A stretch of DNA of 32,000 nt from Candidatus Saccharimonadota bacterium (GTDB lineage Archaea > Micrarchaeota > Micrarchaeia > Micrarchaeales > Micrarchaeaceae), in contig OY970071.1 of the NCBI GenBank assembly GCA_963705375.1, positions 60,001-92,000 of the forward strand, given 5' to 3'. Every line of letters starts with the position of its first letter. Position 1 is the stretch's first letter. The translations under genes were made by a program, and so were the position numbers. Below, piece after piece: positions 4,230 through 25,192 of this stretch. The notes beneath the pieces are model-generated. The model made no database searches, was not told the origin of the DNA, and worked only from the letters and a program-made list of their open reading frames with translations.

Positions 4230-5192
4230 CTAGCGCACTGGCTTAAGAAGCGCGATGCTAGCAAGCATGGCCTCCAGCTGTATGCGCTCGTTCGCACCCT
4301 CGACCACCCTGAAGTTGCATTCGCCTATCTCCTTTATGATTCCAAGCTTCATGCGCTCGTCAATACCTATGTTCTGCACTTCTTTGTAGCACTGCATCAG
4401 TATGTCTTCTGCGCTCATCCCGTGCATTATCATCAGTTTGTCCAGCTCGCTTCTCGCCTTCGCCATGTCTGCGGACACTGCGCACTTCAGCATCGCAACC
4501 ACCTCATCCGGCCTTGCCCTTGACGCTATGTTATACACACTTGCTTCTGTGACCTTGGTGCTCTGTATGGCTGCGCTCTGCAGCACGTTTAAGAGCTTTC
4601 TCAAATCGCCATCACTGACGTATATCAGAGCTTCCACCGCCTTGTCATCCATCTCAAGATTCTCCCCTTCTTTTATGCGCGTTATGTACCTCCTCATCTC
4701 TTCCTCTACCAAGGGCTTGAACCTGAACACCACGCACCTGCTCTGTATGGGCTCGATTATCTTGCTCGCGTAGTTTGCGCTCAGTATGAACCTCGTCTCC
4801 GCTGCAAACATCTCCATGGTCCTTCTCAACGCGTGCTGTGCATCCCCCGTAAGTGCATCCGCTTCATCAAGGAATATTATCTTCGTGGGTACGCGTGCGA
4901 CCGAGATCGTCTTTGCAAACTCTTTCACTGCGCCCCTTATGACGTCGATACCACGCTCGTCAGATGCGTTGAGCTCTTTGAATGCGCCATCAAGTTCTCC
5001 TTTGTATAGCTCGTTAGCCATGGCTACCGCACAGGTAGTCTTGCCTATGCCTGGAGGCCCTGCGAATATCATGTTCGGGAAGTTCCCTCTTGAAATGAAC
5101 GAACTGAGTCTTTCTACGATGAGTTTCTGCCCGATGACCTCCTTCAGGTTCTTCGGCCTGTACTTTTCAGTCCACGGAAGGTCCATTCTCAT
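4230..5192 (-). CDS. rfcS: Replication factor C small subunit (clamp loader)
   Basis: WTEKYRPK box, Walker A GPPGIGKTT, Walker B/DEAD-like IFLDEADALT, SRC motif (IQSRCVVFRF). The track ORF extends to 5414, but homology starts at MRMDLPWTEKYRP (ATG 5192) and A/T-rich TATA-like boxes lie 20-45 nt upstream. Confidence 0.93.
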   Translation of the reverse strand: MRMDLPWTEKYRPKNLKEVIGQKLIVERLSSFISRGNFPNMIFAGPPGIGKTTCAVAMANELYKGELDGAFKELNASDERGIDVIRGAVKEFAKTISVARVPTKIIFLDEADALTGDAQHALRRTMEMFAAETRFILSANYASKIIEPIQSRCVVFRFKPLVEEEMRRYITRIKEGENLEMDDKAVEALIYVSDGDLRKLLNVLQSAAIQSTKVTEASVYNIASRARPDEVVAMLKCAVSADMAKARSELDKLMIMHGMSAEDILMQCYKEVQNIGIDERMKLGIIKEIGECNFRVVEGANERIQLEAMLASIALLKPVR

Positions 5193-5263
5193 GCAATCAC
5201 AAGAAACAATAATATTTAGCAAAGGCATTTTAATAAGCTTTCCTAATATATTGCATTGTCCTC

Positions 5264-5336
5264 GGGGGGCTACGCTAACCTGGCAGACTACCAGCCTTGG
5301 GCGCTGGCGATCGGAGTCCAAATCTCCGGCCCCCCA
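5264..5336 (+). tRNA. tRNA-Pro (anticodon UGG)-like gene, 73 nt, with aberrant D-stem and T-loop
   Basis: Hand-folded. Acceptor GGGGGGC/GCCCCCC has 7 perfect bp plus discriminator A. Anticodon stem CCAGC/GCTGG with loop CTTGGGC (UGG, G37). T-stem CGGAG/CTCCG. D-loop AACCTGGCA contains GG. However, only 2 of 4 D-stem pairs form (CGCT vs GACT), the T-loop reads TCCAAAT (C at position 55), and the variable loop is 4 nt. No encoded CCA. Confidence 0.55.
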
Positions 5337-5565
5337 GCTCTGCTTTTTGTCGACGGAGAGTGGTTGTTTGTCGTCGATATGAGATTTGTACTCTGCTATC
5401 AATTGGCCCACCACGTCGAATGACTATGAATGGCAGTGAATGCCATCAGAACACATGAGTGCGTGCCAATGGCGCGAGTAGCAAACGAAAAACAACATAG
5501 AAAAAGATGTCCCTGTTTGAACCACTGAATGGCACAGAACGACATGCGAAAAACGCCAGGAAAAG

Positions 5566-9701: not shown

Positions 9702-9914
9702 ATGGTAAAGAGAGCTTTTGAGGTTGTGATAGAAAAAGATGCTGAAGGATTTTATGTCGCAGACGTGCCTGAATTGAGAGGATGCCACACCCAGGCAAAA
9801 GATCTTGATACCCTCCAGAAAAGGATAAAGGAAGTGATAGAGCTTTGCCTTGCTGATGAGAAAGAAACGGTAGTTCCAAGTGAATTTGTAGGCGTGCAGT
9901 TAGTGAGCGTTTAG
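9702..9914 (+). CDS. hicB: HicB-family antitoxin (short UPF0150 form)
   Basis: 70 aa. FEVVIEKDAEGFYVADVPELRGCHTQAKDLDTLQKRIKEVIELCL is typical of the HicB N-terminal domain. Its stop is 1 nt before the hicA ATG. TATATTTAAAT box ~35 nt upstream. Confidence 0.85.
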   Translation: MVKRAFEVVIEKDAEGFYVADVPELRGCHTQAKDLDTLQKRIKEVIELCLADEKETVVPSEFVGVQLVSV

Positions 9915-9915
9915 C

Positions 9916-10149
9916 ATGGCAAAATACAAACCCACAACCTCATTTGTGGTTATCAAGGTGCTGTTGTCCATCGGATTTACAATACTCAGAAGGAAAGGCA
10001 GCCACGTAAGATTGAGGCATCCTGATGGACGCATTACCAGTGTTCCTGCGCATGGCAAAGAGCCGATAGGGCCTGGCCTTTTGCTTCGCATCCTAAAGGA
10101 TGCAGATATCTCCAAAGATGAATTCTTTGCACTTGCAGAGAAAATTTGA
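9916..10149 (+). CDS. hicA: HicA-family mRNA-interferase toxin
   Basis: 77 aa. GFTILRRKGSHVRLRHPDGRITSVPAHGKEPIGPGLLLRILKDADISKDEF, the YcfA/HicA signature (KGSH...H...P.H....G.L..IL..). Confidence 0.9.
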   Translation: MAKYKPTTSFVVIKVLLSIGFTILRRKGSHVRLRHPDGRITSVPAHGKEPIGPGLLLRILKDADISKDEFFALAEKI

Positions 10150-10232
10150 TTACTCTTTATAATACGCGACGTTCAGGGACGCTCACTACCGTCGTAAATG
10201 TTCTCTCCCAATTGCATTTTGACGTCGAAGAA

Positions 10233-10243
10233 CCGGCCCCCCA
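10233..10243 (+). repeat. Exact 11-nt copy (CCGGCCCCCCA) of the 3' end of the tRNA-Pro-like gene; candidate attR remnant
   Basis: Identical to 5326-5336 on the same strand. Similarity extends with gaps (CTGC-N-TTT-GT after both copies). A second degenerate match to the T-loop/acceptor segment (AAATCTCCaGCC) lies at 10267-10278. Confidence 0.4.
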
Positions 10244-10316
10244 CTGCATTTGTAGTCTGGACGACTAAATCTCCAGCCACTGCCTATGTATTCTGTTTTA
10301 TAATGGTTATTGTTCG

Positions 10317-10739
10317 ATGTTTTATCGTGGTCTTATGGAAATCGAAACAGGCACCATAAAGCAGAAAGTTGTCATAAATGCAACCCCTGAGGAGATATAC
10401 AATGCATTCATGGATGCTAAGATCCATTCGAAGTTTACGGGCAGCAAGGCTACAATTGTACTCAAAGTTGGAGGCAAGATAACTGCCTGGGACAACTACA
10501 TATTTGGGAAGAACCTCAAACTGGTTAAGGGCAAGAAGATAGTGCAGGAATGGAGCACGACAGAGTGGCCTGATGGTTATCCACCGTCAGTACTTACGAT
10601 AACGCTCAAAAAGGCTAGAAATGGGACAGAACTAACGATGGTTCACTCTAAGGTGCCCAAAGCACAGATGAAAGGCTATGCCGACGGGTGGAAGGGTTAT
10701 TATTGGAAACCGCTAAAGGAATATTTTGAAAACAAATGA
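10317..10739 (+). CDS. SRPBCC-superfamily protein, AHSA1 (activator of Hsp90 ATPase homolog 1-like) domain
   Basis: 140 aa. IKQKVVINATPEEIYNAFMD...HSKFTG...GGKITAWD...I.GKNLKLVKGKKIVQEW...LTITL...GTELTMVHSKVP is the characteristic AHSA1/SRPBCC layout. Confidence 0.85.
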   Translation: MFYRGLMEIETGTIKQKVVINATPEEIYNAFMDAKIHSKFTGSKATIVLKVGGKITAWDNYIFGKNLKLVKGKKIVQEWSTTEWPDGYPPSVLTITLKKARNGTELTMVHSKVPKAQMKGYADGWKGYYWKPLKEYFENK

Positions 10740-10841
10740 AGCTGAGCTCTTCGTTTTAATGCCTTACGGGCCTGTGAAATCCCTTGCGTTTACGCATGAG
10801 GATGAAACAGGCACAGAATATTATCCCTATTTCTCGATTTG

Positions 10842-11426: not shown

Positions 11427-11876
11427 TCAACTCACAGCTTTCTTCACAAGCGCGACGATTTTCGTCTCTTCTGTTGCAGTCAACTTCTTCAGCGCAAAGG
11501 TGACCGGCCACATGGTGCCTTCGTCGAGGTTCGCTTTGTCGCTGAAGCCCAACGTCGCATACCTTGTCTTGAATTTACCTGCGCCTTGGAAGAAGCAGAT
11601 GACCTTGCCGTCCTTGGCATACGCTGGCATCCCGTACCAGAGCCTGGGGGTAAGGGTCGGCGCGGTAGCTTTGATGATAGTGTGGAGCCGCTTGCTCATT
11701 GTGCGATCCGGTTCTGGCATCTGGGCTATTTTCACGAGCACGGCGCTTTCTGCGTCCGCCTCATCCGCATTGAGCTCTTGAATGCGCTCCTTCATCGCAG
11801 ATATTTCCTCGCTCGTCAACCCCTTGGACTTCTTGGTTGTCTTTTCCCTATTCGAGTCGTTTGTCATGCAGGTCAT
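11427..11876 (-). CDS. YdhG-like/DUF1801-family protein
   Basis: [53 protein letters not shown] matches the DUF1801 core as I recall it. The track ORF extends to 12050 inside the upstream gene. ATG 11876 overlaps the stop of the 847-aa gene (ATGA); ATG 11867 is an alternative. Confidence 0.75.
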
Positions 11877-14416
11877 CTGATTTTGGTGAGTGTGAAAGTG
11901 CCGGTGTATGACGTAGGTGGCGTAGAGCTCTGGAACGGCAAGGTTGGGAACGTGCGGCTCAGCTGAACGGTCTCGCCATTCGGATTTAGCCATACTACGG
12001 GTCTTCCACTCGTGTCGTTTACTACGAGCCGACCGTTGGTGTTGCCCCATGTGGTGCTGAAGATATCTTCAATAACTTCAGACGTGAGGGTGTGCGCCTC
12101 TGTGCCGCCGCAATCCTGAGTCGAATATGTAGAGAAATAATAATTAGGCCATGACACGCTCGACTCTGAGCCTAAAATGAAATACACTCCTTGGCTGCCC
12201 GTGGTCAGACCGTCCTGATCGCTAAAAGTACCGCTGTAAGACGAATGCGGGTTTACGTATGATGGATGCGTTCCGTTAACCCAATCGCAGGTGTATTGGT
12301 ATGTGGCATTGGCAGACCCTGTTTCAGAATCACCTCCGCTTTCAGCAGTGTAAGTACCAACCATAAAATTGGTGAATGACAGTAGTATTTTAATCGAGGT
12401 GCGTTGATGCAAGCCGGCCTGTGTAGCGCTTATGTTCAATATGCCGCTATAAATTCCGGTCTGAAGGCCTGTATTATTTTGTAATATTGAAGTGGTGCTG
12501 TTAGTGATGTTGTAGCTTATCGTAGTGCTGCTTGTTGTCTGATTTTGCACCATGCCCGCAGCTATCACAAGCGAGTTGTTGAGATTGAGTGTGGGGACTC
12601 CTCCAGGTCCTGCTGTGGCGCCTTGCCTTAGCGCCTGGATTACCTGTGCATTTGACAGTGTTGGATATTTTCCCCATAAAATGGCTGCATCCGCAGAACA
12701 TACCGGTGCGGCTAAGGAAGTATATGTATCATAAATGGTTCCAGGTATCCTGCCTGCCGGAGTAGTGAACATGACTCCAAGCGGAGTTTTTGATACTCCC
12801 GCACTGCTTCCCCAGTCTGTTACATTAGATAGTGATAGCCCATCAGAAGAGAGCATTCCGCAGAACTGGAATGCATTCTGTACTGCTTTTCCGAGTGAGG
12901 TATCTGTCTGAATGGCAGAAAAGGCACTTGATAAATTGGCTGCGCTGTTGCCTGCGGCCTTGTTTATCATGACGTTTCCGCCTATGAACCAATCGTTGTC
13001 TTGGAGTGCGCCTGCAAGTCCTGCCACCTCATCAAGCCAGGCATCTGCCTTTTCGGAATTTGAGCAGTCATTGAATCCGTTGGGGCCAACACATACCCCA
13101 TACGTAGAGAAACTTATTACGACCTTTTTGTTCGCCTCTTGTGCTGCATCGATTATTGAGAGAATGGTGACCTTGGAGGAGAATTGATCGGCAACACGGC
13201 TGGATGAACTATCTTGAACTTCTATGTACTGCAATTGAGAGTTGGTAGCCGCATCCATTGCACCTGCCACATCATAGCCGTGGCTGCCTGCATTTTGGAA
13301 GCTATCAACAATTACGGTTATGACGTCAGAAGGCGATGCTGCAATTGCGTTTTGCAACTGGGTGAGATTTGAATCAGAGTGAAATGGGTCGTAGACCGTA
13401 GCGATCGCACTTGCCCGTGCATCAACAAAATCAGGCTCGACTGAGAGTGCCACGCCTGTGGCTTTTACATTATTAATAAAAGTCGATTCATTCTGTGTTC
13501 CCGAGCTGGCAAGGTACAATCCTGCTGACGGAAGATATGCAATCAGAGTGCCGTCATACTTCAGTACTGTGCTGTTAACAGTATCCGTTGACGTGAAAGG
13601 CGAAACCGATATCACCACCCAGCCCGGAACCGCATACAAAGGAATTTTCGAACCATTGGATTGTGTATAGTTGAATATGACAGGCTGCGGCACGGTGCCA
13701 TTGTAGAAAACGGCACCATCGAAAAGTGACTTTGTAGTTGTGATGTTAGGTGATTCGGTATAGCCGAGTGTGATCGGACTGGTTATTGTCAATGAATCTA
13801 CTGGGTTGCCTGGATAATAGAATGTTAGGGAATATGCTCCTGGTACTAGTTGCACATTTATGGTGGCACTTTTGTTATATACTATGTACTCGTTGTTGGA
13901 AAAGATCTTTGATACATTCACATGCATGAAGTTTGTGAATTGAGTACGCGTAAGTAGTGCCAATACGATCGGATATTGTGAACTATATGTGCCAGTTATA
14001 TGTATTTCCGTTGCATTAGCTGGTACCGTGAAATTGCTCCAATACACGCTCACACAGGGCGACGGTTTGCATTGCGAAGTCGTTTGGCCAAATTGAAACG
14101 AGACAGGTCCTTGTGCAAAAAGTGTTTGGGACACGTTGCGAGGCGATAGAACAACTTCTGAATTGTTGTTCACATACACGGCCTCGTCCACAATGTATAA
14201 AATTATTAATAAAAGGACGAACCCCAATGCTATATTTCTTGCCCTGAATATGGACTGCGTAGTCTTTGTTGCCTTTTGTTTTTCTACATCTCTATTACTT
14301 GCTGTTTCATTTCCATTGTTCAAGTTTGCTTTCATCTCCAAATACTGCTTCTTTGTAATCTCGCCGTTGGCATAACGACGCTTGATTATCTTTATGCCTT
14401 CTTCCTCCCCCATCAT
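11873..14416 (-). CDS. Membrane-anchored surface protein: N-terminal SHOCT-like motif, one TM helix, sequon-rich region, subtilase (S8)-like domain
   Basis: 847 aa. [23 protein letters not shown] (SHOCT-like). TM helix [15 protein letters not shown]. Subtilase motifs [10 protein letters not shown] (His), KAAGNSA (oxyanion Asn), and [37 protein letters not shown] (Ser motif plus the following helix). Catalytic Asp not confidently placed. Many NxS/T sequons. Confidence 0.75.
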
Positions 14417-19136: not shown

Positions 19137-20132
19137 ATGGCAAAAACCAAAAGGTTAACGAATAGACAGTTCCGAAGATTTTTCAAGGAGTTCAAGAAAC
19201 TGATTGAGATTTACGGCGAAAAAACGGCAGAAAAACACACTGACTGGAAAACATATGAAGAAGAATATGCAAATAGGATAAGATATGTCGCGAAAGAGTT
19301 GAACATTCTTACAAAATCAGCAATAGACTCTATTGAGATGAAGGTATCCAAATTCGGAAGACCTGCAAAATTGTCTCTCCAACAGAAGGTGGTTGCGCTT
19401 ATCCTAAAATCGATTTTCTGCAAAAACAACAGACCAATGGCCGGACTGATGTCCCTTTTTGGCGCATTTTGTGGCATTGACATTAGTTACAAAACTGTCG
19501 AAAGGATGTATTCTGATGAACTGGTGCGAATTGTTTTGCACAACATGTTTATTCTGACGATAAAACGAAAATGTGATAAGAAAATAGATGTGAGCGGAGA
19601 CGGAACGGGTTACACACTAACAGTAACGAAACATTACCGTACACAAGTCGATAAAGAAGGGTACAGGAAATTCGTGTATTCGTTCAATCTCATCGACATA
19701 AAGAATGGGTTGTACATATGTTATGGCTCGGGTATACGATCTGAAAAGGAAGCATTCGAAAATGCAATGAAGCTGCTCAGAAATGTAGAGGTGGCCACAG
19801 GGATAACAGTCAATAGTGCAAGGTTAGACAGGTACTATAGTTACCAATCAACTTTGAAGTATTTTGACGACAAAACTGTTTTGTACATAATCCCAAAGAG
19901 CAACACAACAATAAATGGCCCGTCTAGATGGAGGAAGATATTCAGACGGATGATGAAGGATCCTCTGTCCTACTTGATAGAGTACTACAAAAGGGAGAAG
20001 TCTGAGAATGGTTGGTCTGTAGATAAACGGATGGTTGGGTGGAAAATATGGCAGAAAAGAAATGACAGAATCGATACAGCAATAAGTTGTACTGCAACAC
20101 TTCACAACTTATTCAGAATCGGTTATGGATGA
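19137..20132 (+). CDS. DDE-type transposase
   Basis: 331 aa inside the IR-bounded element. Candidate DDE residues in DVSGDGTGY, SARLDRYYS and YYKREKSENGWSVDKR. The stop overlaps the right IR. Confidence 0.88.
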   Translation: MAKTKRLTNRQFRRFFKEFKKLIEIYGEKTAEKHTDWKTYEEEYANRIRYVAKELNILTKSAIDSIEMKVSKFGRPAKLSLQQKVVALILKSIFCKNNRPMAGLMSLFGAFCGIDISYKTVERMYSDELVRIVLHNMFILTIKRKCDKKIDVSGDGTGYTLTVTKHYRTQVDKEGYRKFVYSFNLIDIKNGLYICYGSGIRSEKEAFENAMKLLRNVEVATGITVNSARLDRYYSYQSTLKYFDDKTVLYIIPKSNTTINGPSRWRKIFRRMMKDPLSYLIEYYKREKSENGWSVDKRMVGWKIWQKRNDRIDTAISCTATLHNLFRIGYG

Positions 20133-20145
20133 CTTTTGTCCCAGA
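20131..20145. repeat. Right terminal inverted repeat (GACTTTTGTCCCAGA)
   Basis: Perfect reverse complement of 18895-18909. Confidence 0.85.
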
Positions 20146-20157
20146 ATCGACTCTCTA
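20146..20157. repeat. Right copy of 12-bp target-site duplication ATCGACTCTCTA
   Basis: Identical to 18880-18891. Confidence 0.8.
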
Positions 20158-20161
20158 ATAA

Positions 20162-20173
20162 CATATAAATATT
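20162..20173 (+). promoter_or_regulatory. TATA-like box (CATATAAATATT) of the lyase-like gene pair
   Basis: Located 5 nt after the IS target duplication, ~32 nt before TTG 20205 and ~47 nt before ATG 20220. Confidence 0.35.
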
Positions 20174-20219
20174 AGGAAGCGGCCAAGAGTGCACCGATGA
20201 TGCTTTGGCAACAAAGGAG

Positions 20220-21161
20220 ATGGAGCCGACAAAGTCAAAAACTAGGCCTTCTACTGCCGCTCCATTTGATGTGCCTGCTGTCGATGCCGAAGTGCTGAAT
20301 ATATTTAAGAAATACCAGGTCGTGTGCCATATGCGCGATTCTGATGATTTCTTCTTCCATGTTTATTCTCGGCCAGACCTTGAAAAAGAGCTAGAAGCGC
20401 TGCAAGTGAAAACGGACGTGGGTTATAAGCTGCACGTTAACGTTTCGGATGAGTGCATCCCTCAATTTCTTGACGAGGCAATAAAGTTGCTTAGCGAAAA
20501 AGGCGCAGACTTCAAAGTGATGCGGCCCAGCATGCGGGACCGCGCCTCGGAAGGGCAACAATGCAAATTACTTACGATTTTTACTAGAAGCAAGTTCCGG
20601 GCAGAAACGATAGCCTCAGATCTTGAACGCATACTCGAACCTCCGACTTGTAAATACGAATACCATAGTGGCACTATTCCATCAAATGAAATAAAGTATA
20701 ATGATTACATAACTTACAGGTACTGCAACTTCAAAGACAGCATTCTTCATAATCCTTGGAATCCTTATGAAAGAATAGACGGCTTGGAAAGCCGGTTGGG
20801 GGCAAAGTTCGCAGACTGGACCGAGCCGCTTGGCGAAACCCACATAGTTTCGCGTAGTGACGTCCTTAACGGGGCTGCAAAGTTAGGAGACATCGTGATG
20901 ATACTGAGAAGGCACGTACCTGTAAGGTTTTCAAATTGTACGTTCTTAAAAGCAGAGCTTCTGGACTATAATGCTCATCGTGACCTTCAGAACCAGATCG
21001 ATCAGAATCAAACTGCCAACATTAAAACCAAGCACCCACAAACTGTGAACTTGCTTGTCGTGGTCGATGGCCTGGATTATTTCTGGACAAACGTTCCAGT
21101 GGATTACCTAATGGCCCGTGTACCGAAAGGCATTACTTCAGACATCACTTTGGAAAACTGA
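20220..21161 (+). CDS. Stand-alone phospho-Ser/Thr-lyase-like protein (LanKC/LanL N-terminal lyase domain / HopA1-OspF-like), paralog 1
   Basis: ORF 20205..21161 (ATG 20220 or TTG 20205). Motifs in order: GYKLHVNVSDEC, DFKVMRPS, CKLLTIFT, ITYRYCNF. C-terminal module IVSRSDVLNGAAKLGDIVMIL...AELLDY...NVPVDYL. The coding call is strong; the family call rests on motif recall. Confidence 0.6.
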   Translation: MEPTKSKTRPSTAAPFDVPAVDAEVLNIFKKYQVVCHMRDSDDFFFHVYSRPDLEKELEALQVKTDVGYKLHVNVSDECIPQFLDEAIKLLSEKGADFKVMRPSMRDRASEGQQCKLLTIFTRSKFRAETIASDLERILEPPTCKYEYHSGTIPSNEIKYNDYITYRYCNFKDSILHNPWNPYERIDGLESRLGAKFADWTEPLGETHIVSRSDVLNGAAKLGDIVMILRRHVPVRFSNCTFLKAELLDYNAHRDLQNQIDQNQTANIKTKHPQTVNLLVVVDGLDYFWTNVPVDYLMARVPKGITSDITLEN

Positions 21162-21171
21162 GGCGGATTCC

Positions 21172-21996
21172 ATGCCCAATAATTACGCAAAGCCGCAAGA
21201 GTCTCTGCCCATTATCCAGCATAATTTCACCTTATGGACGGACGATAAGGTTCGCGAAGCATTCGGCGAAAAAGGCTGCAAAGAGGAAGGATCTTTTTTC
21301 ATTTCAAAAAACATGTTTTTTATTCCGGAAAGTAAGGGCGCGTTTAAAGGTTACAAAATTCATGTTAACGTTTCAGACGAGTGTGTTCTGAGCTTCCTTG
21401 AAGAATTTGTACCGAAGCTCGAAGACAAAGGTGTGGTTTTCAAAGTATGGAGGCCTAGCAAGCTTAACGACGCTGAAGCAGCAGGACAAGGTAAGCTATT
21501 GACGATCTATGCGCAAAGCAGATACGAAGCGCTGCAGATATGCGACATGCTTGAACCCTTGATTGTTAAATACCTAAACGACATCCTGCCACAACGAGAA
21601 AAAACATTAGAATCGCCAAAACATCCGAATCTAACGGGGTTTGTATCTTATCGGTATTGTACTTTCACTAAACAACCTCTCTGCGATTCTTGGCATGCCG
21701 GAATACGAATAACTGATGACGAAAGCAGGAACGGTAATAAAGCAGGATGGGCCAGAGGTCTTGACGAAATTCCTCGCATCGTTTCGCGTTTAGACGTTAT
21801 TGAAGGAAGGGCAAAAATAGGCGACATGGTGCTTCTGCAACGGCAAGGTCAGGATGTGCCTGCAGAACTTTTGGATTATGACCCTATTCGCAATACCGTT
21901 TGCGTGCTTGACATTCATGTTCTCGGCATGATCGTGCTGATGAATGCTGTGCCTGTGGATAAGTTGTCGGAGTCACTTCTGCGAAATGATCCGTGA
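21172..21996 (+). CDS. Stand-alone phospho-Ser/Thr-lyase-like protein, paralog 2
   Basis: ORF 21118..21996. ATG 21172 lies 10 nt after the paralog-1 stop and has GAGG 8 nt upstream. Motifs GYKIHVNVSDEC, VFKVWRPS, GKLLTIYA, VSYRYCTF, then IVSRLDVIEGRAKIGDMVLL...AELLDY...AVPVDKL. Confidence 0.6.
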   Translation: MPNNYAKPQESLPIIQHNFTLWTDDKVREAFGEKGCKEEGSFFISKNMFFIPESKGAFKGYKIHVNVSDECVLSFLEEFVPKLEDKGVVFKVWRPSKLNDAEAAGQGKLLTIYAQSRYEALQICDMLEPLIVKYLNDILPQREKTLESPKHPNLTGFVSYRYCTFTKQPLCDSWHAGIRITDDESRNGNKAGWARGLDEIPRIVSRLDVIEGRAKIGDMVLLQRQGQDVPAELLDYDPIRNTVCVLDIHVLGMIVLMNAVPVDKLSESLLRNDP

Positions 21997-22245
21997 CATG
22001 TCTCTTACCTTTCATCGAATGTTCGCTTCCTCTTATGTCCTTTGAAGAACCTCTTTCCAAATTTCAGGCACCTACATAACCGAAAGCCTTCGTCAAAACG
22101 CATCGCTTCGAATTCTCTTTTTTGCTCTATGCTTATAGAATTATACATAGATTTATACGTTATATTTATACATATATTATTAGAAAGTTGAGCATTAACA
22201 AGGCTCAGATTTCGGCCTTTGTACATTTATGTATGGTGAAAATAC

Positions 22246-23271
22246 ATGGAAAAGAACGCATATCTAGGCAAAAAATTGAAACACATAAGCATGACTACAA
22301 ACAGCATAACGGAGCTTATTGACACGTACTCGTCAATGGCATTCCAGTCTAGGAACCTCGCGAACGCAACAAAGATATTCGAGCGCATGCTCCAGGACAA
22401 GGATTGCTCAATAATCCTGTGCCTTGCTGGATCCATATTCAGCGCTGGCCTGAAAAAGCTCGTATACGAGATGATCGAGAACAACATGGTCGATGCCATA
22501 GTGTCCACTGGCGCAATAATGGTCGACCAGGACTTCTTTGAGGCTCTTGGCTTCTACCATTACATAGGGACTCCGATGTCCGATGACGAGGACTTGAGGC
22601 AGAAGCACATAGACAGAATCTATGATACCTACATAGACGAAGACGAGCTTAGGGTGTGCGATGAAACAGTCGGAATGATAGCAGACGGCCTCGATCCGCG
22701 TCCTTACTCTTCTAGAGAGTTTGTGATAGAGATGGGCAAATATCTCACAAAGAACTGCAAGAAGGACGACTCAGTGGTTCTGGCCGCATACAAGAAAGGT
22801 GTGCCAATATTCATACCCTCTTTCTCAGACTCTAGCGCGGGCTTCGGCCTGATACACCACCAGACACAAAATCCAAAGTCGCACGTCTCAATCGATTCGG
22901 CGAAAGACTTCCTTGAGCTTACCAAGGTGAAGCTGGCTGCAAAGGAGACTGGATTGTTGATGATAGGCGGCGGCGTTCCAAAGAACTTCACCCAAGATAT
23001 TGTTGTTGCAACGGACGTGCTCGGAAAGCCTGCGCCAATGCACAAGTATGCAATTCAGATAACTGTTGCAGATGAGCGTGATGGTGGGCTTTCGGGATCA
23101 ACCTTGAAAGAGGCCCATTCGTGGGGCAAGGTCGATACAAGCAACACCCAGATGGTGTATGCTGAGGCGACGCTCGCGATGCCGTTGATGATGTCGTATG
23201 TCTATCACAGCGGTGCCTGGAAGGGAAGGACTTCCAAGAACTACAACAAAGTGCTGAAAGATGCGGAATGA
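22246..23271 (+). CDS. dys: Deoxyhypusine synthase
   Basis: 341 aa. FQSRNLANATKIFERML, LAGSIFSAGL, DAIVSTGA, RIYDTYIDEDELRVCD, IGGGVPKNF, EAHSWGK (catalytic Lys region). Confidence 0.93.
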   Translation: MEKNAYLGKKLKHISMTTNSITELIDTYSSMAFQSRNLANATKIFERMLQDKDCSIILCLAGSIFSAGLKKLVYEMIENNMVDAIVSTGAIMVDQDFFEALGFYHYIGTPMSDDEDLRQKHIDRIYDTYIDEDELRVCDETVGMIADGLDPRPYSSREFVIEMGKYLTKNCKKDDSVVLAAYKKGVPIFIPSFSDSSAGFGLIHHQTQNPKSHVSIDSAKDFLELTKVKLAAKETGLLMIGGGVPKNFTQDIVVATDVLGKPAPMHKYAIQITVADERDGGLSGSTLKEAHSWGKVDTSNTQMVYAEATLAMPLMMSYVYHSGAWKGRTSKNYNKVLKDAE

Positions 23272-23319
23272 TTTCGCAGGCATCTAAGCGCAAAGCACGA
23301 GCAAGAGGGATCGGATAGC

Positions 23320-24162
23320 ATGAGCAAGACACGGATCGGCATCGTCCAGATGAAGATGGGTGCCGACAACAAAAAGAATCTTGCCCATGCCCTGAAGATG
23401 ATCAACGAGGCTGCACGGAAAGGTGCAGATATAGTCTGCCTTCCCGAGCTCTTCAGTTCGCGCTACTTTCCTCAGTACAGAGGATTGCCAAAGATTGCGG
23501 AACCAGTTCCTGGCCCTACCACCAATGCGTTGTCCGATGCTGCAAAGGGAGAACAACGTTGTTCATTGTTGGGGGCTCTGTGTATGAGAAATCGCAGGGC
23601 AAGTTCTACAACACCGCTGTGGTCTTCGATCAGAACGGCAGGATTTTAGGAAAATACAGGAAGGTCCACATACCATTCGATCCCCACTATTATGAGAAGG
23701 ACTATTTCTCTTCAGGTAGGGAGTACAAGACATTTGACACTAAGCTTGGTAAGGTTTCGGTGCTCATATGCTTCGACCAGTGGTATCCGGAGCCTGCAAG
23801 GATCTGCAAGCTCGATGGGTGCAGAGATGCTGTTCTACCCGACTGCAATAGGCACTGTAAGGGGCGTTGAGCAGGCGGAAGGCAAGTGGCAAGAAGCATG
23901 GGAGAACGTTCAGCGCGGCCATGCCATATCAAACAGCCATGATCATCTGCGCGGTCAACAGGAGTTGGTGTTGAAGGCGATCTGGATTTCTGGGGCGGTT
24001 CCTTTGTCATAGACCAGTTCGGGAAGACATTGTTCCGTGCCGGAAATAAGGAAGGCGTCTTCGTGGTGTTCTTGCGACCTCTCGCTGGGGCGCGACGTCG
24101 AATCAGGGTGGGGTTTCATCAGAAACAGAAGAGCTGGTACTTATGGCTACATCTCCCGCTAA
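23320..24162 (+). pseudogene. aguB: N-carbamoylputrescine amidase-like carbon-nitrogen hydrolase, interrupted by six 1-nt insertions
   Basis: Homology runs through frames 1,2,3,1,2,3,1. Segments: MSKTRIGIVQ...CLPELF...DAAK | ENNVV | IVGGSVYE...YRKVHIP...VLICFDQWYPEPAR..LD | GAEMLFYPTAIG...RGHAISN | AMIICAVNR | VGVEGDLDFWGGSFVIDQFGK...GVFVV | SCDLSLGRDVESGWGFIRNRR...*. Track ORFs 23320, 23559, 23692 and 24030 are fragments of this gene. Confidence 0.8.
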
Positions 24163-25192
24163 ATCAACAGGTGCTGCTCCTTTTGCAATGGGCTACCGCA
24201 TGCCTGCAGAATGGAGTGCTCACGAGGCTACGTGGCTTTCGTGGCCGAAGGATCCTGTAACTTTCCCTGGAGATTCTGTGAAAAAAGTAGAGCAGACCTA
24301 TGTCCAGATGATGGGTGAGCTACGGCACGGCGAGCGCGTGGATCTGCTTGTTGACAACCAGGAAACTCAAGACGCGGTCTCCAACATGATGGGCCAAAAG
24401 GACAATGTAATGTTCCACAAGATTCGCACCGTTGATGTATGGGTGCGGGACTATGGCCCTATATTCGTCAAAGGAAAGGGCATAGCCGCGACAAAGTGGA
24501 CATTCAACGCATGGGGCGACAAGTACGAGGAGCTCAAATATGACGATACGGCTGGGATGCAGGTTGCCGCTTATACCGGGTTTCAGACTTTCAAGCCAGG
24601 AATAGTGCTGGAGGGTGGCTCCATAGACGTTAACGGCCTTGGGTCTTGCATAACGACAAAACAGTGCCTCCTCAACCCAAACCGCAATCCACAACTCAAG
24701 CAAAAAGACATCGAAATGCTTCTGCGCGATTATCTTGGGATAACGCACGTGATCTGGCTCGAAAAGGGTGTGGCTGGCGATGACACTGATGGGCACGTCG
24801 ATGACATCGCTAGATTCGTGAATCCAAACACGGTGGTCTGCATGGTCGAGAAGGATGAGCGCGACGAAAATTATGAGGTGCTGAAGTCCAACTTCGAGCA
24901 GCTGTCCGCATCAATGGACCAGTCAGGAAGCAGGCTTAACGTGATTCCGATACAGATGCCTGGCAAGGTGAGCCTCGAAGATACGAGGTTGCCTGCAAGC
25001 TACGCAAACTTTTACATAGCGAATTCAGTTGTTCTTGTCCCTGTTTTTAACGATCCGAACGACCGTCAGGCACTAGAAACTCTGCGCCATGCATTCCCTC
25101 ATAAAAAAGTTGTGGGTGTCGACTGCAGGGCATTGGTCCAAGGACTTGGAACGATCCATTGTGTGACCCAACAGCAGCCTGCGCCTGAATAA
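24143..25192 (+). CDS. aguA: Agmatine deiminase
   Basis: 349 aa. YRMPAEWSAHEATWLSWP, VWVRDYGPIFV, FNAWG, EGGSIDVNG, TDGHVDDIARFV, GTIHCVTQQQP (catalytic Cys). Confidence 0.92.
   Translation: MATSPAKSTGAAPFAMGYRMPAEWSAHEATWLSWPKDPVTFPGDSVKKVEQTYVQMMGELRHGERVDLLVDNQETQDAVSNMMGQKDNVMFHKIRTVDVWVRDYGPIFVKGKGIAATKWTFNAWGDKYEELKYDDTAGMQVAAYTGFQTFKPGIVLEGGSIDVNGLGSCITTKQCLLNPNRNPQLKQKDIEMLLRDYLGITHVIWLEKGVAGDDTDGHVDDIARFVNPNTVVCMVEKDERDENYEVLKSNFEQLSASMDQSGSRLNVIPIQMPGKVSLEDTRLPASYANFYIANSVVLVPVFNDPNDRQALETLRHAFPHKKVVGVDCRALVQGLGTIHCVTQQQPAPE

Follow-up and report, generated by a model that had tools for sequence, protein, structure and literature searches.

Frameshifts of one direction in an archaeal aguB-like hydrolase gene probably reflect a consensus of two co-occurring haplotypes

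Is a gene whose homologous protein changes reading frame six times, always in the same direction, a decaying gene, a recoded gene or a product of the assembly? The question is raised by an aguB-like carbon-nitrogen hydrolase gene of the PF00795 family, located at 23320-24162 (+ strand) of a 32,000-nucleotide stretch of archaeal DNA (the window, GC content 46.9 %). In the initial annotation the gene was read as carrying six single-base insertions and as being otherwise pristine, and very recent inactivation, a localised sequencing or assembly error and recoding were named as possible explanations. Three-frame translation confirmed that the homologous protein passes through frames 1>2>3>1>2>3>1 across the coding sequence, and deletion of the six bases proposed there gave an 837-nt open reading frame of 278 amino acids with no internal stops.

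Residues 7-274 of the restored protein align to the NCPAH structure 6MG6 (E = 3e-53), and a second solved NCPAH structure, 5H8I, was also matched over the full length. The segments LPELF (Glu), YRKVHIP (Lys) and LICFDQWYPE (Cys) align to conserved blocks, in agreement with the earlier statement that the catalytic residues are intact. When the extra bases are removed, the protein has both the full-length match and the Glu/Lys/Cys motifs of the nitrilase superfamily (PF00795), a domain that was present in all of its close homologues. The carbon-nitrogen hydrolase fold and the three motifs are like those of AguB/NCPAH of the agmatine deiminase route. TIGR03381 (AguB) was the best NCBIfam match; unlike an AguB equivalog, the window protein obtains 240 bits and does not reach the equivalog cut-off of 410.25. 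Because of this score the restored protein is best regarded as a predicted aguB-like, diverged archaeal relative and not as a formal TIGR03381 equivalog, and N-carbamoylputrescine or bis-carbamoyl-homospermidine is its candidate substrate. The window is from an archaeon of the Nitrososphaerales type: the nearest homologues are from Nitrososphaerales MAGs, and the nearest GTDB representative genome encodes a protein 82 % identical to the restored hydrolase.

Both neighbouring genes are intact and full length, as had been noted from the beginning. A deoxyhypusine-synthase homologue of the SpeY type (dys, 22246-23271, + strand) lies upstream, and an agmatine deiminase-like gene (aguA, 24143-25192, + strand) shares 20 nt with the 3' end of the hydrolase gene, the three genes being arranged head to tail. 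The adjacency of aguB and aguA is kept in all 45 related loci listed, and a speY-like gene upstream of the aguB-like gene was found only in the closest relative (contig L002) among the loci listed. The dys-like gene scores as SpeY (561 bits against 500), and the position of the hydrolase gene, 3' of a SpeY-type homologue and overlapping an agmatine deiminase homologue, is like that in the SpeY + AIH + NCPAH homospermidine clusters. A bacterial cluster of SpeY, agmatine deiminase and NCPAH has recently been shown to make homospermidine from agmatine, and the same study asks if archaea have agmatine-dependent DHS homologues (PMC13625781). Judged from its gene content, the speY-aguB-aguA cluster of the window may be an example of these. 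At lower coordinates, the window has a tandem pair of paralogous genes, 20205-21161 and 21118-21996, that overlap each other. About 190 aa of their products align with 40 % identity, and both match the RamC_N domain weakly. They are preceded by a gene for a 331-aa protein (19137-20132), which has no Pfam match and is dissimilar to the pair.

The best database match to the restored protein was P0001, with 96 % identity, followed by a protein with 82 %. P0001 is encoded on L001, a 4.3-kb Logan contig assembled from run ERR11594402, and it is uninterrupted, with 295 aa in the gene call and 278 aa when counted from the homologous ATG. On both sides of the gene, at 20121-22997 and at 24132-24390, L001 and the window are 100 % identical. 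All 27 differences between them fall in the 1,134 bp from 22998 to 24131, and they comprise 20 substitutions and seven bases that are found only in the window, while L001 has no base that the window lacks. Seven further contigs of the same run (L080-L086) were found by exact-protein look-ups. Of the window's 32,000 bases, 27,493 are spanned by the eight independently assembled Logan contigs together, and outside 22998-24131 there was not a single difference in 26,359 compared bases. If the seven indels were placed at random, the chance of all of them falling in 1,134 of 27,493 bases would be about 2e-10. An uninterrupted open reading frame in raw reads or a sister strain had been named in advance as the mark of an assembly artefact, and this is what the ERR11594402 copy, with its identical flanks, provides.

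The run itself is probably derived from the same sample or population as the deposited assembly, since ERR11594402 was the only public run matched by the window proteins and most look-ups also returned one contig of more than 1 Mb. A literature search for the run accession gave no match. P0126, the broken ORF fragment of the window itself, is on record from a contig of 1,209,602 bp, and therefore the frameshifts are in the deposited assembly. The frameshift-bearing ORF fragments were found on no other public contig. The length of the deposited contig, 1.2 Mb, suggests an assembly of the long-read type.

Some features of the Logan contigs and of the wider window may be recorded here. L001 and L080 abut at 24390/24391 with no overlap, about 260 nt past the last variable site, while the other neighbouring pairs of contigs have 28-29 nt in common. 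On contig L084, which is identical to the window, a HicB-like antitoxin and HicA toxin pair was called after a NUDIX hydrolase gene (about 9702-10149). An ORF of 847 aa on the reverse strand (11873-14416), identical in L081, has no credible Pfam domain and a sub-threshold SHOCT match. The ORF listed at 4230-5414 encodes the replication factor C small subunit, and its 5' extension contains a tRNA-Pro(TGG) gene (5264-5336), so that translation of the protein probably begins 3' of the GTG given in the list.

The extra bases were placed by base-by-base alignment to the near-identical intact copy on L001. The six coding sites of the initial annotation were recovered, each within 4 nt of the position given there, and a seventh site had been missed: an extra T at 23316 (GGA[T]AGC), 4 nt 5' of the ATG and thus outside the 278-aa coding sequence. 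Within the gene, three of the extra bases form pairs with an adjacent base in which either member gives a synonymous codon, namely G23551 (GGA[G]AAC; A|G at 23550/1, GGA or GGG), C23813 (CT[C]GATG; C|G at 23813/4, CTC or CTG, Leu) and G24068 (GGT[G]TTC; G|T at 24068/9, GTG or GTT, Val). Two others correspond to exchanges of similar residues. At A23565 (GTTC[A]TTG; C|A at 23564/5) the alternatives are CTT (Leu) and ATT (Ile), both of which are found in close homologues, and at G23964 (GGA[G]TTG; A|G at 23963/4) they are ATT (Ile) and GTT (Val), of which Val is carried by the outgroup L002 and by 36 of 39 homologues. The remaining base, C23937 (CAG[C]CAT), stands beside another C, and its reading as a doubled polymorphism is ambiguous. 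All seven extra bases are on the + strand as read. Placement against L001 also alters three residues of the restored protein: aa77 is Gly and not Glu, aa165 Met and not Asp, and aa205 Ser/Thr and not Ala.

Thus at five of the six coding sites, putting the extra base in place of the adjacent L001 base leads to a synonymous codon or to a residue found in homologues. In simulation, random non-homopolymer insertions pass this test at 69 % per site, and the probability of the observed set is about 0.1-0.16. L002 carries the extra base at one of the doubled sites, the L001 base at two or three and neither at two, and five of the seven implied doubled polymorphisms would be transversions. The earlier claim that the indels are insertions in one direction only was borne out by the alignment (seven insertions in the window and no deletions, P = 0.008 at 50:50). 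Six of the seven extra bases are unlike both neighbouring bases, C23937 being the only one of the homopolymer type, and three of the non-homopolymer bases fall inside what L001 has as an unbroken homopolymer. No convincing sequence or methylation motif was shared by the seven sites, although three of them follow GGA.

A single direction of shift throughout and a perfect restored protein are also what would be expected if programmed +1 ribosomal frameshifting or correction at the transcript level restored the protein, and as in the frameshifting of bacterial prfB each shift moves the reading frame by +1. The window nevertheless differs from prfB in having six sites instead of one; its shift sites are not conserved and coincide with neither a stop codon nor a rare codon. 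The seven contexts have no common slippery or hungry-codon motif, none of them is at a stop codon, and the old frame continues for many codons past each shift site. One extra base, T23316, is not even in the coding sequence. No orthologue conserves the shift sites: the gene is uninterrupted in the copy with identical flanks and in 76 of 78 related loci (L001 and L002-L063 are read in a single frame), and the two exceptions, L064 and L072, break elsewhere. To our knowledge, six programmed frameshift sites in one prokaryotic gene of 278 codons are without precedent. We consider recoding to be extremely improbable.

The 20 substitutions give information on the nature of the tract in which the extra bases lie. 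Seventeen of them are in the aguB-like gene, one is upstream of its start and two are in dys. The latter, at 22998 and 23104, are the outermost of the tract and both are synonymous. The 17 in-gene substitutions consist of ten synonymous and seven non-synonymous changes, and the non-synonymous ones are mostly conservative: there are two K>R exchanges and one each of L>I, A>T and A>V, against which stand A>E and, at a variable column, R>G. Under random change, the probability of at least ten synonymous changes among 17 is 0.003, and dN/dS is roughly 0.2. The statement that the gene has no other damage therefore stands as far as stop codons and catalytic residues are concerned, but not with regard to the 17 in-gene differences from L001.

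In the outgroup L002, in which the gene is 79 % identical, the window allele was found at six sites, the L001 allele at six and neither at five. Similarly, in an alignment of 40 homologues the common residue is carried by the window allele at some positions and by the L001 allele at others. Because of the synonymous and conservative bias and the equal support of the outgroup for either allele (6:6:5), the tract points to a real second allele, unlike random error or decay. From the synonymous bias, the split in L002 and the support of homologues for each allele it follows that derived changes have accumulated in both lineages, under purifying selection. With a divergence of about 2.4 % inside otherwise identical DNA, the tract probably arose by import through homologous recombination, or else as a locally maintained polymorphism; a recombination tract is the probable form. 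The transition:transversion ratio of the 20 substitutions (8:12) is low for natural divergence of close strains, and it might reflect the types of SNP that a consensus caller mishandles. DGR-style hypermutation was considered and rejected, as the substitutions have no adenine bias.

The same substitutions bear on the notion that the region is merely a low-quality stretch, with thin coverage or a gap filled by one noisy read, and that all 27 differences are random errors. The differences are indeed tightly localised, and some raw long-read chemistries have insertion-rich errors. However, random errors would not lean towards synonymous and conservative changes (P = 0.003), nor would L002 agree with the window base as often as with the L001 base (six sites each). 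We therefore regard this explanation as improbable.

The description of the gene as otherwise pristine could not be upheld, as the extra bases lie in the tract of a diverged allele, about 2.4 % different within identical DNA, and this location explains the one-directional pattern. It could still be argued that the sequence is a real and very recent pseudogene allele, in which a diverged aguB tract was recombined in and seven genuine +1 insertions occurred, the Logan run representing an intact sister allele. The sequence does, after all, stand in the public record, where P0126 lies on the 1.2-Mb contig, the diverged allele has the look of a real one, and it is we who infer that ERR11594402 and the assembly share a sample. 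Against this stands the spectrum of the indels, with seven insertions, no deletions and six of the seven not of the homopolymer type. Prokaryotic indel spectra are usually dominated by slippage and biased to deletions, and homopolymer length errors are typical of reads; the spectrum of replication slippage differs from that of the extra bases in the window. On the assumption of at least five substitutions per indel, decay would have brought 35 or more neutral substitutions, of which some 26 would be non-synonymous, but only seven non-synonymous changes were seen (Poisson P about 1e-5), with dN/dS about 0.2. The restored frame has no stops, the catalytic residues are unchanged and the aguB-aguA pair is kept in all 45 relatives listed. 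Of the features of a decaying pseudogene, i.e. dN/dS near 1, mixed indels and nonsense changes, none was found. A pseudogene allele is thus unlikely, although it is the least unlikely of the alternatives to an artefact. More improbable again, and somewhat below even the low-quality stretch, is that an insertion-bearing allele physically exists, produced in a localised burst of insertion-only, non-slippage mutation that accompanied the import of the tract by recombination or repair synthesis. If true, an ammonia-oxidising archaeon would have undergone a 'mutation shower' with a +1 signature.

In our judgement the frameshifts are most probably a consensus artefact, formed when two co-occurring haplotypes were assembled as one sequence. 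In the population the aguB-like region would exist as two alleles, both functional, which diverge by about 2.4 % along some 1.1 kb within otherwise identical genomes. At the 20 substituted positions the consensus would have chosen the allele that is not in L001, and at seven of the 27 variable sites it would have retained both alleles in tandem, as XY instead of X or Y. Such doubling can only add a base and never remove one. Once both bases were in the draft, each column would be backed by about half of the reads, and a haploid polisher would presumably have no clear reason to drop either. An error that only adds bases would make all shifts go one way, would leave the flanks clean and the motifs intact, and would also account for T23316, which is outside the coding sequence; the non-homopolymer type of the shifts would follow from the two alleles being kept side by side. 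This mechanism, including the presence of both alleles in the assembled reads, is our interpretation of the pattern. In a simple likelihood treatment doubling is favoured only where deletion has a per-base probability above sqrt(substitution probability / 3), a condition that is borderline and context dependent and that fits doubling at only seven of the 27 sites.

The errors are confined to the polymorphic tract and are absent from an independent assembly, in which the gene is intact, as would be expected of a mixed-haplotype artefact. The second allele in an insertion-free form was sought in three ways: a search with the full-length protein gave only P0001 (96 %) and then a drop to 82 %, a search with a 121-aa allele-specific fragment returned only the window's own P0126, and there were no matches when JGI metagenome contigs were scanned for exact 27-mers. 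A paralogue was also considered as a source of mixed reads and was rejected, as there was no second protein of at least 90 % identity in the collection searched.

Long-read assemblers are known to collapse conspecific strains into one consensus (PMC8302730), and both collapsed-strain consensus sequences and indel frameshifts have been described in long-read MAGs (PMC8302730, PMC9262707). The case of the window resembles such 'strain-oblivious' consensus errors in that one consensus is formed from conspecific haplotypes, with frameshifted ORFs on very long contigs, and in that the frameshifts vanish in an independent assembly. In contrast, the indel errors commonly described for long reads are homopolymer length errors spread across the genome, whereas those of the window are of the non-homopolymer type in six of seven cases and are restricted to a single 1.1-kb tract rich in SNPs. 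A literature search for a consensus error with both alleles in tandem gave only general statements on strain collapse and indel frameshifts, and we infer this signature from the window and not from a published description.

The two related loci in which the gene is also broken are both from long-contig Nitrososphaerota MAGs. L064 (MFD09222.bin.2.165) has one break in the +1 direction at 10190-10280, and L072 (MFD00991.bin.2.13) has two, at 10500-10600 and 10690-10760. These breaks are at other positions than those of the window, and at least one of them looks non-homopolymer (GTG[C]GTC). In addition, truncated homologues (P0125 and P0144) occur on contigs of 147 kb and 735 kb. Taken together, these cases suggest that the error class recurs in such assemblies, which fits them better than conserved biology does. 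Among the three explanations offered by the initial annotation, a localised sequencing or assembly error is thus favoured, recent inactivation is unlikely and recoding is unsupported.

Where a long-contig MAG has a SNP-dense tract with a cluster of same-direction, non-homopolymer frameshifts, these indicate a collapsed consensus of two haplotypes. Such a signature could be of diagnostic use and should not be taken for pseudogenisation or recoding, as automated pseudogene counts and pathway-completeness calls on genomes of this kind would be misled by doubled bases. For the organism studied here, it is almost certain that a working aguB-like gene is present, and its polyamine pathway should therefore not be scored as broken.
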